Part shown: positions 55,681 to 62,118 of the stretch, piece by piece
How positions within the stretch are numbered: the stretch's first letter is position 1
How the letters are laid out: every line of letters starts with the position of its first letter
NCBI GenBank assembly: GCA_963743915.1
Contig: CAVURN010000002.1
Location: forward strand, 256,001 to 320,000
Direction: 5' to 3'
DNA from: an uncultured Actinomycetota bacterium
GTDB taxonomy: Bacteria > Actinomycetota > Actinomycetes > JAHEKZ01
Length of the DNA: 64,000 nucleotides
Notes under the pieces: generated by a model
What the model was told of the DNA's origin: nothing
The model's input: only the letters and a program-made list of their open reading frames with translations
Database searches by the model: none
Translations under genes and position numbers: made by a program

Positions 55681-56772
55681 TCAGTGGGCCGACCAGCCGG
55701 CGGCGCGCAGCGCCTCGGTCAGCGGGGCCGCCTGGTCCGGGGACACCGACAGCTCGACCAGCCCGACCGGGTGCCCGGCCGAGTGCTCGAGCCGGATGTC
55801 CTCCACGCTGGCCCCGGCGTCCGCCACCGCGACGAAGAGAGCCGCCAGCGCTCCGGGCTCGTCCGGGATCACCACGGGGACGACCGCGTAGTCGGTGGCC
55901 GGCGTCCCATGCTTGCCGGGGATCCGGGCGTATCCCTCCTGACCTGCAGCGATCAGACGCTTGATGGCTTCATCGACTTCACGTCTTGTCGACTTGTCTG
56001 CAGCATGATCCGCCAGTGCGGCCCCGACGTCGGTGATCTCCTGGCCCAGGCTCCGCAGCAGGGGACCCACGACGGCGGCGTTCGCGGCCAGGATGTCGCT
56101 CCACATCGTGGCGTCGCTGGCGGCGATCCGGACGGTGTCCCGCAACCCCTGTCCGGCGAGCACCATGGCCTCTGCGCTCGCCTGCCGAAGCTCACCCGCC
56201 AGCGCGCTGGCCACCACCTGAGGGAGGTGCGAGACCAGCCCGACCGCCTGGTCGTGCTCCTCCGCCGACATCCGCACCGGATCGGCCCCGCAGTCCCGCA
56301 CCAGACGCTCCACCAGAGCCACCCGATGGTCCGGGACGCTGCTCGCCGCGCACACCGCCCACGGCCGGGCCTCGAAGAGGTCGGCTCGAGCCGCCGTCGC
56401 CCCGCTGCGTTCCCGCCCCGCCATCGGATGACCCCCGACAAAGCGCTCGGAAACCCCTAATCTCTGCGCCTCCAGTTGAGGGTCATACTTGATGCTCGAA
56501 ACATCACTAACCGTCGCCGAAGGATACAGACGGATGCACTCCTCCATGACCAGTCCCACCGCAGAGGGTGGCACGGCCAGCAGGATGAGCTCAGGGGCGT
56601 CCTCACACCAGCCCGCCTTCCCTGCTCCCAGGTCGGCCGCGACACGTTCCGCGCGGGGATCGGTGTCGTGGATCCACACCTGCCAGGGACGGTCCGAGAG
56701 GGCGAGACCCACCGAGGTCCCCAGAAGGCCGGCCCCCACGATCTGGAGCACAGCCTCCTCAGACCGGCTCAT
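55681..56772 (-). CDS. tyrA: Prephenate dehydrogenase with C-terminal ACT domain
   Basis: GAGLLGTS, GGHPMAGRE, HDQAV..VSHLP, DTVRIA. Confidence 0.92.
   Translation of the reverse strand: MSRSEEAVLQIVGAGLLGTSVGLALSDRPWQVWIHDTDPRAERVAADLGAGKAGWCEDAPELILLAVPPSAVGLVMEECIRLYPSATVSDVSSIKYDPQLEAQRLGVSERFVGGHPMAGRERSGATAARADLFEARPWAVCAASSVPDHRVALVERLVRDCGADPVRMSAEEHDQAVGLVSHLPQVVASALAGELRQASAEAMVLAGQGLRDTVRIAASDATMWSDILAANAAVVGPLLRSLGQEITDVGAALADHAADKSTRREVDEAIKRLIAAGQEGYARIPGKHGTPATDYAVVPVVIPDEPGALAALFVAVADAGASVEDIRLEHSAGHPVGLVELSVSPDQAAPLTEALRAAGWSAH
55973..55996. repeat. 8-bp-phased iteron trio inside tyrA
   Basis: TCGACTTC ACGTCTTG TCGACTTG within an A/T-ending codon patch. Confidence 0.55.
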
Positions 56773-57128
56773 TGCGCGAGATCCTGTCGCAGCACCTCGG
56801 CGCCCCTCAGGTAGACGTGCACGATCTCGCCCCGGGGGCGGTCCAAGGCAGCGTGGGCCATGACCCGCACGACGCGCGGGAGGGCACCGACCACGTCGAG
56901 CTCCTGGGCACAGATCAGGGGCACGTCACCGATCCCCAGCGTGCGGGCCGCGGCGGCCGGGAAGGCGCTCCGGAGGTCGGGCGTGCTCGTGAAGATCACA
57001 CTGATCAGGTCGTCCGTGGTCAGGTCGTTCCGGGCTAGCAGCTCCCCCATCAGCTCGACCACGGCGTCGGCCATCTCGGTGGCGTCGTCGGCCCGCAGCT
57101 GGGTGGCTCCGCGGAGTGCTCTGATCAC
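56769..57128 (-). CDS. aroH: Chorismate mutase AroH
   Basis: RALRGATQL, FTSTPDL..AFPAAAAR, HVYLRGA..LR.DL. Confidence 0.94.
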   Translation of the reverse strand: MIRALRGATQLRADDATEMADAVVELMGELLARNDLTTDDLISVIFTSTPDLRSAFPAAAARTLGIGDVPLICAQELDVVGALPRVVRVMAHAALDRPRGEIVHVYLRGAEVLRQDLAQ

Positions 57129-57172
57129 GGCGTCACCCTATCGGCCCCTCGATGAGCAGAGAACACGCCACA

Positions 57173-57444
57173 TCGTCATGTCGACTTCGTGTCTCGCCAA
57201 GTCGACAAAGTTCCTTTCGGAGAATCCCCTCCGCGCACGGACTCCAGGGGGTCCGGATCCCCCACCGACTTGTCGACATGCGGCGTTTCGTGGGGACTCT
57301 CCCTGCAGGTCAGGACCGCATCGCCCGGCTGGGCGATTCACGGGCAGCAGATCGGTCTGCCCCTCCGACTTGTCGACAAGCCGATGGCGGCGCCATGCCA
57401 GCGCCTCGCCTCACTATTTACCGACTAACCGACAAGTCGAGAAG
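57173..57444. repeat. Cluster of 8-bp-phased CGAC-WW iterons in the rluB-aroH spacer and rluB 3' end
   Basis: CCC(A/T)CCGACTTGTCGACA at 57261 and 57361; TGTCGACTT-N11-AAGTCGACA at 57179-57207; CCGACTAA CCGACAAG TCGAGAAG at 57421-57444. Confidence 0.75.
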
Positions 57445-59718: not shown

Positions 59719-60126
59719 TCAGCCCTCGCGCAGCCGACGGGCCACGATGCTCGCCTCGCCCTTGGCCGCGAGGTCGGCGACGACCACGGCCACCGCCTCA
59801 CGCACGATCCGGCCGCGGTCCACCTTCAGGCCCAGGTCGCGGTAGAGGGTCGACTTGGCCTCGTCGAGCGCGACCAGCTCGTCCGACGACAGGTAGACGG
59901 TGATCTTCTCGTCGTGCCGCTGGCGGCCCGACGGACGGCCCGCTCCCCGCTGCGCGCGCGAGGCAGGGGGTGCGATCTCTCGATCTTTAGGTGAGGTAGA
60001 GACTGTTTCCCCATCTGGGGATCGGGGCTGTGGAGGGCTGGTCTCGACCGCCTCGGCGAGAGCGGACGCCGACGAGGTGGTGCGGAAGAGCTCGGAAGCC
60101 CCTGGGAGGGCGGCGCGGCGACTCAT
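59719..60126 (-). CDS. Conserved ParA-associated small protein, predicted ribbon-helix-helix DNA-binding C-terminus
   Basis: N-terminal basic peptide MSRRAALPGASELF, low-complexity linker, then strand (EKITVYLS)-helix-helix (DRGRIVREAV); overlaps the parA stop. Confidence 0.65.
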   Translation of the reverse strand: MSRRAALPGASELFRTTSSASALAEAVETSPPQPRSPDGETVSTSPKDREIAPPASRAQRGAGRPSGRQRHDEKITVYLSSDELVALDEAKSTLYRDLGLKVDRGRIVREAVAVVVADLAAKGEASIVARRLREG

Positions 60127-61034
60127 CGGGCGAGCACCTCCTGCGCCAGCTGACGATAGGCGGCGGCTCCTGGCGACTTCGACGCGTAGCTGGTGATGGG
60201 CTCCCCCGCCACCGTCGTCTCCGGGAACCGGACGGTCCGGTTGATCACCGTGTGGTACACCCGGTCGCCGAACGCCTCCACCACCCGGGTGAGCACCTCG
60301 CGGCCGTGAGTCGTGCGGCTGTCGTACATGGTGGCGAGAATGCCATCAAGCTCTAGTTGAGGGTTAAGCCTTTCGGTCACCTTTGAGATGGTGTCCATCA
60401 GCAGAGCGACCCCTCGGAGGGCGAAGAACTCGCACTCCAGCGGGATGATCACCCCGTGCGCGGCCGTCAGTGCGTTCACCGTCAAGAGGCCCAGCGAGGG
60501 CTGACAGTCGATGAGGACGTAGTCGTAGTCGTCGGCGATGGTGGCCAGCCCGCGCCCGAGGGTCTGCTCCCGCGCGACCTCACCGACCAGCTGCACCTCG
60601 GCGGCTGACAGGTCGATGTTGCTCGGCAGCAGGTCCATGCCGGCCGTGTTGGTCTTCAGCAGGATGTCCTCCGCCTCGACCCCGCGGTCCATCAGCAGGT
60701 TGTAGACCGTGCGGTCGAGCTCGTGCGGGTTCACCCCGAGCCCGACCGACAGCGCCCCCTGGGGGTCGAAGTCGACGAGCAGCACCCGGCGCCCGAACTC
60801 GGCCAGAGCAGCGCCCAGGTTGATGGTCGTGGTGGTCTTCCCGACGCCGCCCTTCTGGTTGCACATGGCGATGATCCGCGCCGGACCGTGCTCGACGAGC
60901 GGTTCGGGCACCGGAAAGACCGGCAAGGGGCGCTGCGTGGGGCCCAGGGCACCCACCTGACCTGCGGAGATGCCGTCGTCGGCGACGTCCGGTGGGACCT
61001 CTGCGGCATCGGGGGTATTTGTCGACTTAACCAC
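60123..61034 (-). CDS. ParA/Soj-family ATPase (Rv1708-like second ParA)
   Basis: NQKGGVGKTTT, DFDPQG, IDCQPSLG, FPE. Confidence 0.93.
   Translation of the reverse strand: MVKSTNTPDAAEVPPDVADDGISAGQVGALGPTQRPLPVFPVPEPLVEHGPARIIAMCNQKGGVGKTTTTINLGAALAEFGRRVLLVDFDPQGALSVGLGVNPHELDRTVYNLLMDRGVEAEDILLKTNTAGMDLLPSNIDLSAAEVQLVGEVAREQTLGRGLATIADDYDYVLIDCQPSLGLLTVNALTAAHGVIIPLECEFFALRGVALLMDTISKVTERLNPQLELDGILATMYDSRTTHGREVLTRVVEAFGDRVYHTVINRTVRFPETTVAGEPITSYASKSPGAAAYRQLAQEVLAR
60342..60364. promoter_or_regulatory. FtsR-type site embedded in parA coding sequence
   Basis: GCCATCA-AGCTCTAGT-TGAGGGT within rare-codon run GAA AGG CTT AAC CCT CAA CTA GAG CTT GAT. Confidence 0.5.
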
Positions 61035-61137
61035 GAATCTCTAAACCTCTCGGCAGACTTCACGACAAACCGTTCGCAGCCTAGGCGGCGGTGACCGTGG
61101 GTGGCAACCCTGGTCGACTCCGGGTGGGTGCTGCCGG

Positions 61138-62118
61138 TCAGCCTCTGGCCCGTGGATGGGCCGCGGCGTAGACCTCGCGCAGCTTGTCCACCGTGACCAG
61201 CGTGTAGATCTGCGTGGTCGTCACGGAGGCGTGGCCGAGCAGCTCTTGCACCACGCGCACGTCGGCTCCGCCGTCGAGCAGGTGGGTCGCGAAGCTGTGG
61301 CGGAGGGTGTGGGGCGAGACGTCCTCGGTGATGCCGGCGTGCTCGGCGGCCGCCCGGAGCACGGTCCAGGCGCTCTGCCGGCTCAGCCGACCGCCCCTGC
61401 TGTTGAGGAACAGAGCGGGGACCCCGGAACCACGCTCGGCCAGGGGTGGGCGTCCACGGACCAGATAGGCCTCGAGCGCCTCGGTCGCGTACCGGCCGAC
61501 GGGGACCACCCGCTCCTTGCCCCCCTTCCCGGCCAGCCGCAGGACCGCCGACTCCCGGTCGAGATCGTCGACGTCGAGGCCCACCACCTCCGAGATCCGC
61601 GCACCCGTGCCGTAGAGCAGCTCCAGCAGCGCCCGGTCCCTCAGCTCCTTGGGAGTCCGGCCCTCGCCGGCGGCCGCGAGCAGGGCCTCGACCTGGTCGT
61701 ACCGCAGCGCCTTCGGCAGCCGCCGGGGTGGCGCCGGGGGCCGGACGTCCGCCGCCGGGTCCGTGGGAGTCAGCCCCTCCAACGCCGCGAACCGGTGGAA
61801 CCCGCGGACGGCCACCACGGTGCGGGCTGCTGAGGAGGCCGCGAGCGGTGGATGCTCCACGTCGCCCTCGCGCAGCCGGCCGAGGAAGGCGAGCACGTGC
61901 CCCTCGGTGACCTCGTCCGGTGCATGGACCCCGACCTCGCGCAGGAAGGTGAGGTAGCGCGCCAGGTCACGCCGGTAGGACGTCATCGAGTTGCGGGCCA
62001 GACCTCGCTCGAAGGTCAGGTGGTCGAGGTACTGGCGGACCGCCACCGACACCGGCGTGTCGCCGTCGGCGGGCCGCTCACCTGGCTCCGACTGCGGAGC
62101 TCCGGCGGTGCTGGGCAT
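61138..62118 (-). CDS. xerD: Tyrosine recombinase XerD
   Basis: ERGLA.N...[58 protein letters not shown]-ald-xerD-parA synteny. Confidence 0.93.

Follow-up and report, generated by a model that had tools for sequence, protein, structure and literature searches.

A second chromosomal ParA, a small ribbon-helix-helix-like protein and a rare palindromic site that look like a plasmid-style partition module in an actinobacterium

The window analysed, a stretch of 64,000 nucleotides (nt) from an uncultured Actinomycetota bacterium (contig CAVURN010000002.1, positions 256,001 to 320,000), belongs to an actinobacterial genome of 2.92 Mb and 70% GC. On its minus strand it carried the gene string ald, xerD, parA2, a 135-aa open reading frame (ORF), scpA, scpB, rluB, a 290-nt spacer, aroH, tyrA and cmk. 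The 135-aa small partner gene is designated here as sml. Together, ParA2, the sml product and a rare palindromic site scattered along this string look like a plasmid-style partition module residing in a chromosome, usually near the replication terminus. The co-orientation of xerD, a ParA ATPase gene, a coupled gene for a 135-aa protein and scpA/scpB about 30 kb from a dif site, pointed out in the initial annotation of this DNA, was confirmed by ORF, Pfam and dif scans. The parA2 stop and sml start codons overlapped by 4 nt, which points to translational coupling in the window, and the two genes abutted in 9 of 12 orthologous loci. Gene order was kept in all 12 relatives, the nearest belonging to the same genus and the farthest to the same class, and in 14 of 14 further relatives fetched; the locus is chromosomal, and its synteny extended across the phylum. 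An alanine dehydrogenase gene (ald, 62192-63349) was situated directly upstream of xerD-parA2, and in S. coelicolor ald (SCO1773) is described as the upstream neighbour of SCO1772 (PMC3878966); the neighbourhood is thus old. A hydrophobic ORF of about 240 to 300 aa preceded scpA in three loci, after sml in L047 and straight after parA2 in L042 and L043, which lack sml.

The Walker A motif of ParA2, KGGVGKT (K61-T67), was invariant in 20 orthologues. Because the protein shared 42% identity with the canonical ParA of its own genome and the canonical parA-parB pair was situated on a separate contig, it was regarded as the second actinobacterial ParA, that is ParA2/PldP/Rv1708, an assignment based on synteny and on the descriptions in the papers. 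PldP (Cg1610), Rv1708-MSMEG_3743 and SCO1772 ("ParA2") are described as products of a second parA adjoining scpA-scpB (PMC10482377). ParA2 has been described as present in all actinobacteria (PMC4255298), and two reports (10.1101/2025.07.02.662783, PMC10482377) still class it as an orphan that lacks a partner or cis site of its own.

The sml product matched no family in Pfam or NCBIfam scans; it had 7439 relatives at E ≤1e-3, all unnamed, and 464 clusters at 50% identity. An alignment of 70 diverse homologues showed an N-terminal peptide, MxRRVxLPGAxELFR, in which L7, P8, A10, L13 and F14 were each at least 90% conserved, a linker variable in length and sequence, and a C-terminal block, PSGRxRHDEKITVYVS...VDRGRIVRE, with 12 invariant residues; among the invariant ones, K74, T76 and Y78 occupied alternate positions of the presumed ribbon. 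In the AlphaFold2 model, residues 70-135 had a predicted local distance difference test (pLDDT) score of 95-98 and formed an extended segment (72-80) followed by helices 81-98, 104-125 and 127-134, and residues 1-69 scored 56-74. The layout proposed earlier for this protein, an N-peptide, a linker and a helical C-terminus, was thus borne out by both alignment and model. The ribbon-helix-helix (RHH) fold suspected for it was supported in part: the C-terminal model is RHH-like and its structural neighbours were mainly RHH proteins, but their scores were modest and DSSP assigned no strand to the extended segment 72-80 in the monomer model. A search of the 70-homologue profile against PDB sequences returned spurious matches only. 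The sml product probably binds DNA. The N-terminus of the genome's own ParB, MTESKKRGLGRGLGALIP, loosely resembles the sml N-peptide in its basic residues, central Gly, and Leu plus a hydrophobic residue; the resemblance is our own reading of the two sequences. A complex prediction, run without controls on two ParA2 chains (residues 28-303) together with ATP and residues 1-40 of sml, scored 0.00 where the mark was 0.32; it speaks neither for nor against contact. In one locus (L039, genome G029), a divergent sml homologue lay between parA2 and scpA; it retained the N-peptide RRVSLPGAAELFRPT and had a different ribbon (EQVGLRLPS), the locus contained no TCGAYA sites, and the homologue is a candidate for altered DNA specificity. 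Comparison of ribbon variants (KITVY versus KVTFY) with box variants (GTCGAC versus ATCGAT) revealed no clear pattern of covariation.

On the gene strand, the repeat unit of the locus was a 20-bp palindrome, CCGACTTGTCGACAAGTCGG, built from 8-bp boxes, WGTC/GACW, with a central TCGA and a CG dinucleotide 8 bp away on each side. In 75 aligned TCGAYA instances from 13 loci, C and G were found at -7/-6 in 48 and 44 instances and at +9/+10 in 51 and 46, and this recurrence of flanking CG around the central CG indicates that the 8-bp phase is real. The phased pattern CGACWWNNCGACWW matched the window three times versus 0.08 expected, a number reached by none of 100 shuffles. Across the genome (2.9 Mb) it likewise had three matches, all inside 57266-57435, so that the octamers, for which an equal frequency throughout the genome had been considered, are in their phased form confined to this locus; TGTCGACWWGTC also had three genome matches, two in the rluB-aroH spacer and one in tyrA at 55987. 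The initial annotation had described tandem octamers at 8-bp phase and had cited the 8-bp periodicity of the TP228 ParG centromere: the phase and every position given held, whereas direct iterons fit less well than palindromic 8-bp boxes. A position weight matrix (PWM) of 20 positions was trained on the orthologous spacers alone, with the window left out. In the genome scan its four top hits were 57365, 61014 (parA2 start), 57265 and 55981 (in tyrA), and 6 of the 9 best hits fell within the locus. This matrix replaced the 10-bp palindrome TTGTCGACAA, which alone proved a poor model, with 2 exact copies, 61 copies with one mismatch and chance clusters elsewhere.

The sites in the window (Table 1) mark four places: the parA2 start, the 3′-end of rluB, the spacer between rluB and aroH, and tyrA. 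Two elements, designated as O1 and O2, were located at the parA2 start. A hexamer pair, TTGCC...TAGAGT, was conserved upstream of the parA2 start in the orthologues, and GACTTGTCGTGAAGTCT directly after the -10 was conserved, within the genus, in 6 of 13 loci and partly in others. A scan for promoters and terminators of the E. coli type found none, and the promoters were therefore deduced from conserved hexamers. The two sites nearest aroH were about 35-75 bp upstream of a conserved TAGGGT (57140-57135). This TAGGGT stood 6 nt before the aroH GTG start (57126-57140), an arrangement shared by the orthologues, and its spacing suggests that the aroH-tyrA transcript is leaderless. The spacer RNA (57129-57420, minus strand) folded somewhat better than shuffled sequences (z -2.74), with a GC-rich hairpin after each of the two best spacer sites; an Rfam scan found no family in the spacer, the one weak match in the region being inside parA2 (mir-140, E 0.065).

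Table 1. Genes, putative promoter and box sites of the locus, with the dif-like site and the origin-proximal sites of two other genomes
Feature	Position	Strand	Evidence or remark
xerD, tyrosine recombinase, first of the co-oriented string	61138-62118	-	Pfam Phage_integrase 1.5e-48 and Phage_int_SAM_1
parA2, Soj-type ParA paralogue, deviant Walker A KGGVGKT	60123-61034	-	Pfam AAA_31 2e-61, CbiA
sml (135 aa), with N-peptide, disordered linker and an RHH-like domain at the C-terminus	59719-60126	-	alignment, structure model, fold neighbours
scpA	58783-59664	-	Pfam SMC_ScpA 3.8e-54
scpB	58173-58835	-	Pfam SMC_ScpB 1.2e-48
rluB	57418-58176	-	ORF and Pfam calls
aroH	56769-57128	-	ORF and Pfam calls
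tyrA	55681-56772	-	ORF and Pfam calls
Putative parA2 promoter, TTGCCA (61107-61102), 18 nt, TAGGCT (61083-61078)	61078-61107	-	TTGCC...TAGAGT conserved at the equivalent place in orthologues
O1, operator-like degenerate 20-mer ACGGTTTGTCGTGAAGTCTG directly after the -10	61054-61073	-	window copy 10.6 bits on the PWM
O2, box over the parA2 start codon, TTAAGTCGACAAAT	61014-61033	.	18.6 bits, second-best of the 2.9-Mb genome
Three phased boxes spanning the 3′-end of rluB with its stop codon, CTCGACTTGTCGGTTAGTCGGTAA	57413-57440	.	PWM 13.9 and 13.1 bits
Best site of the genome, CCGACTTGTCGACAAGCCGA	57365-57384	.	22.2 bits, rank 1
Further spacer site, 100 bp away from the best one	57265-57284	.	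18.6 bits, within the top 4 of the genome scan
Two sites just upstream of the putative aroH promoter	57173-57213	.	16.8 and 16.2 bits
Sites in tyrA, variable linker-coding stretch between dehydrogenase and ACT domains	55965-56000	.	18.5 and 12.3 bits
dif-like site (context, outside the module)	28923-28950	+	unique match, GC skew
Sites of G163, in rsmG and after parB	L084:6600-6619 and 9301-9320		origin rather than near dif
Sites of G347, after parB and in dnaA	L085:8115-8142 and L086:472-499		origin rather than near dif

Analogous sites were present at the orthologous loci, where their absence had been named as evidence against the module, and they occurred only where sml was present. Eleven of 12 relatives had three to six sites in the rluB-aroH spacer and at the 3′-end of rluB, where the orthologues have a matching site too. 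All 13 loci had WWGTCGAC at the start codon of parA2, and 10 of the 13 had a site within tyrA, about 290-330 bp ahead of its stop codon. The last encoded different peptides in different frames (VDK, SIN and IDK), as GTC GAC AAA for VDK in one locus and A TCG ATA AAT for SIN in another, and the retention of the motif while peptide and frame varied suggests that the DNA, and not the protein, is under selection. Co-occurrence was scored as a site of at least 13.5 bits upstream of or at the parA2 start in a 390-bp window. By this measure a site upstream of parA2 was found in 27 of 31 loci bearing sml (28 with the start-codon site of the window), from at least 15 family codes and several classes, versus none of 11 loci without sml, at a chance rate of 0.18% per 390-bp window. 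In these 11 loci parA2 ran into scpA or an unrelated membrane ORF, and no site of at least 13.5 bits was found anywhere in the locus. As xerD, parA2, scpAB and rluB were present in both groups alike, the motif goes with no gene of the locus other than sml. The association was consistent but short of statistical proof, the relatives not being independent, and the tree supplied too few pairs for an independent-pairs test.

A profile search detected sml in 76 of 401 genomes sampled across the phylum, including families outside the class of the window; 11 of the 76 are unpublished and were counted in this tally only. Most of 16 distant loci fetched had a site upstream of parA2, several had sites in the rluB-aroH spacer and some had sites clustered right after sml. 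With a strict 12-mer, all 3 genome-wide hits of G311 were inside the locus and all 3 of G388 no more than 12 kb from it, both genomes belonging to another class; in G006, 2 of 3 hits were inside it, and G079, G093 and G024 had 0 of 3, 1 and 1 hits there, respectively.

Two genomes, G347 and G163, possessed sml and had no site in the sml locus. In G163, 20 of 26 10-mer hits were examined, and two strong ones (22.1 and 20.6 bits) flanked the canonical parAB operon, one in rsmG upstream of parA and the other 6 nt after the parB stop. In G347, a 24.5-bit site with a phased neighbour was situated directly after parB, and a 19.2-bit site in the linker-coding part of dnaA. Nothing of at least 11 bits was found near parB in G000 and five genomes with sites at the parA2 locus. 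Thus, the sites can be unlinked from sml and placed elsewhere, which favours a trans-acting, centromere-like role over pure autoregulation. The 10-mer, WTRTCGAYAW, occurred 26 times in G163, 3 times as a reversed control and 4 times in other genomes; most of the 20 G163 hits examined looked like in-frame GAT GTC GAC ATC coding hits without phased CG.

The dif-like sequence CGATAATCGACATTATGTCAA (28927-28947) was the sole match in the genome, the reversed control having none, and it fell within the broad maximum of the cumulative GC skew of the contig. The locus of the window was 28-32 kb from it, and the distance to the dif candidate was 32 kb (G000), 28.5 kb (G006), 33 kb (G019) and 86 kb (G024); for G311 and G388, where the candidate has 2 mismatches, it was about 20-26 kb, and for G030, which lacks sml, 93 kb. 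Proximity to dif, found in 6 of 7 assessable genomes bearing sml, is thus common, and inheritance along with xerD may account for it. The closeness to dif pointed out in the initial annotation recurs in these genomes, but a strict tie to the terminus is countered by the sites at parB and dnaA in two lineages and by one locus far from dif (see below). The central region of the dif-like site, ATAATCGACATTAT, resembled the box motif, with 15.2 bits on the PWM.

Taken together, similarity in gene arrangement, protein layout and repeats suggests, with a probability of roughly 0.6, that ParA2, sml and the palindromic boxes form a chromosomal module working like type Ib partition, in which binding of the boxes, stimulation of the ATPase and a role at the terminus are predicted. 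Among the features of type Ib systems, the window showed a Walker-type ParA with a deviant Walker A motif and a small partner gene directly downstream of parA in one operon. It also had an N-terminal tail with a conserved peptide, for which stimulation of the ATPase is predicted, and repeats that were rare, conserved and co-occurring with sml, for which binding by sml is predicted. The module is filed as working like type Ib rather than as a member because type Ib systems are carried by plasmids, whereas this locus is chromosomal and no sml was found in the plasmids searched. The type Ib-like chromosomal reading proposed earlier is partly supported, by the gene coupling, the RHH-like model, the locus-specific repeats and the orthologous repeats. 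In the predicted mechanism, sml would dimerise via its RHH domain, K74, T76 and Y78 of the ribbon would read the boxes, and neighbouring dimers would bind co-operatively along the 20-bp palindrome. Where it covers the promoter and start codon of parA2, the complex may repress the operon, the site clusters 3.6 and 5 kb downstream may form a nucleoprotein landmark on the chromosome, and the N-peptide on its flexible linker would engage ParA2 and stimulate its ATPase.

Several observations weigh against this interpretation. ParA2 is a Soj-type chromosomal paralogue, and tblastn of sml against 72,556 plasmids gave no match. Three of the 31 loci bearing sml, L050, L051 and L061 (13.1 bits), had no site upstream of parA2. 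The independent events behind the co-occurrence are few, since the tree of locus proteins, with deep branches unresolved, calls for a minimum of 3 changes in sml and 2 in the motif. The parB and dnaA sites of G163 and G347 argue against a role tied strictly to the terminus, as does the position of the G347 locus, 745 kb from the dif candidate. In mycobacteria lacking sml, ParB and ScpA are the reported binding partners of ParA2 orthologues (PMC10482377), and ParA2 can thus work without sml. Finally, several sites lie at the presumed promoters, where a plain repressor would explain them too.

Such a repressor, with sml as a local RHH transcription factor that would shut down parA2-sml-scpAB, tune the promoters of aroH-tyrA and cmk and have no part in partition or positioning, is the strongest of the rival explanations, albeit an unlikely one. 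Both elements at the parA2 start overlap the presumed transcription start or the start codon, two sites stand just upstream of the conserved aroH -10, sites were found between tyrA and cmk in L026, L031 and L047, and RHH repressors with tandem operators are common. However, a plain repressor leaves several features without a place: sites lie in coding DNA (the rluB end and the tyrA linker), clusters reach up to 13 sites of at least 14 bits within 10 kb (L052), the L039 homologue keeps its N-peptide though its ribbon differs, and G163 and G347 carry their sites beside parB and in dnaA, with none in the operon. A conserved N-terminal motif on a long disordered linker is, moreover, described as typical of ParA adaptors, not of plain repressors (PMC3074162). 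Repression is also compatible with the partition-like module, type Ib proteins doing both jobs.

It is improbable that some other protein (XerD, ParA2 itself or an unlinked regulator) binds the boxes, with the link to sml a by-product of shared ancestry. The kinship of the loci, with only two to three state changes deduced, the 15.2-bit resemblance in the dif centre and the position of xerD as the neighbouring gene would speak for such a protein, but XerD, ParA2, ScpA, ScpB and RluB are all encoded in the 11 loci that lack sml and carry no site, the association of motif and sml holds across classes, and the 8-bp phase and palindrome fit tandem RHH dimers, as in the met boxes of MetJ. It is very hard to credit that the repeats act at the RNA level, as a leader or a structured spacer, or that chance or codon usage produced the pattern: the spacer RNA does fold somewhat better than shuffles, high-GC coding DNA is rich in GTCGAC, of which the window has 220 copies, and most of the G163 10-mer hits examined look codon-driven, but the spacer matches no Rfam family, the only weak match lying inside parA2, the sites, palindromic as DNA, occur on either side of genes and in differing reading frames, and the phased pattern exceeds its expectation with every genome copy in the locus.

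Extending the partition-like module to the phylum gives a more tentative and, as a whole, rather doubtful picture, in which Actinomycetota would carry a second, "landmark" partition in the chromosome. Here sml would sit on a box cluster of a few kb, usually 20-90 kb from dif, its ParB-like N-peptide would couple this landmark to ParA2/PldP, seen at division sites in other species, and the terminus would be positioned together with XerD and SMC-ScpAB. The cargo of the "orphan" ParA2 would then be a defined locus, and the landmark would have moved to the origin (parB, dnaA) in two lineages.

The conserved partner and the defined candidate site found with the profile search, in 76 of 401 genomes, make the cargo of the orphan ParA2 a question open to direct experiment, and if the sites act as a centromere, bacteria lacking MatP would possess a terminus-proximal partition-like system next to xerD and scpAB. 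For a widespread protein with no Pfam or NCBIfam model, sml provides a family name and a testable function. The literature searches, with most subscription journals outside them, found no description of the sml partner or its site, a provisional result that agrees with the earlier statement that no cis site had been described, and matches to the motif string in papers were primer-like among those listed.

Terminus-specific DNA landmarks are known in MatP-matS and in the XerD unloading sites of B. subtilis; neither involves a ParA, and the motif described here does not track xerD. The archaeal SegAB and HpaAB systems likewise combine a chromosomal ParA-type ATPase with a small site-specific partner (PMC8682754, 10.1101/2025.11.19.689047). 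The proteins and sites of the window are unrelated to those of SegAB, HpaAB, MatP-matS and the B. subtilis XerD sites. The nearer likeness, by synteny and descriptions, is to PldP, Rv1708 and SCO1772, since parA2 of the window adjoins scpA-scpB and the ald neighbourhood; unlike the ParA2 proteins described, whose reported partners are ParB and ScpA, it has its own partner gene, sml, and candidate cis sites.

MetJ is an RHH protein that reads tandem palindromic 8-bp met boxes with a central CG via a Lys and a Thr of its ribbon. With MetJ, sml shares invariant ribbon residues (K74 and T76) and palindromic 8-bp boxes with a central CG, but MetJ is a metabolic repressor with a co-repressor, without a ParA partner or an N-terminal adaptor peptide, and it was absent from the best 50 structural neighbours of sml listed. 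Among plasmid systems, type Ib RHH centromere-binding proteins are described as activating their ParA partner through a flexible N-terminal tail, and pCXC100, ParG and omega show each of the features proposed here (PMC3074162). In TP228 ParF-ParG-parH and pSM19035 delta-omega, an RHH dimer with a basic flexible N-terminal tail activates the ATPase and serves as both centromere binder and autorepressor (PMC3074162). The type Ib ParA-ParB-centromere system of pCXC100, an actinobacterial plasmid, uses nine direct, non-palindromic 9-bp repeats in one block (PMC3074162), whereas the module of the window is chromosomal, has 8-bp palindromic boxes in several clusters over 5 kb and shares no sequence similarity with it.

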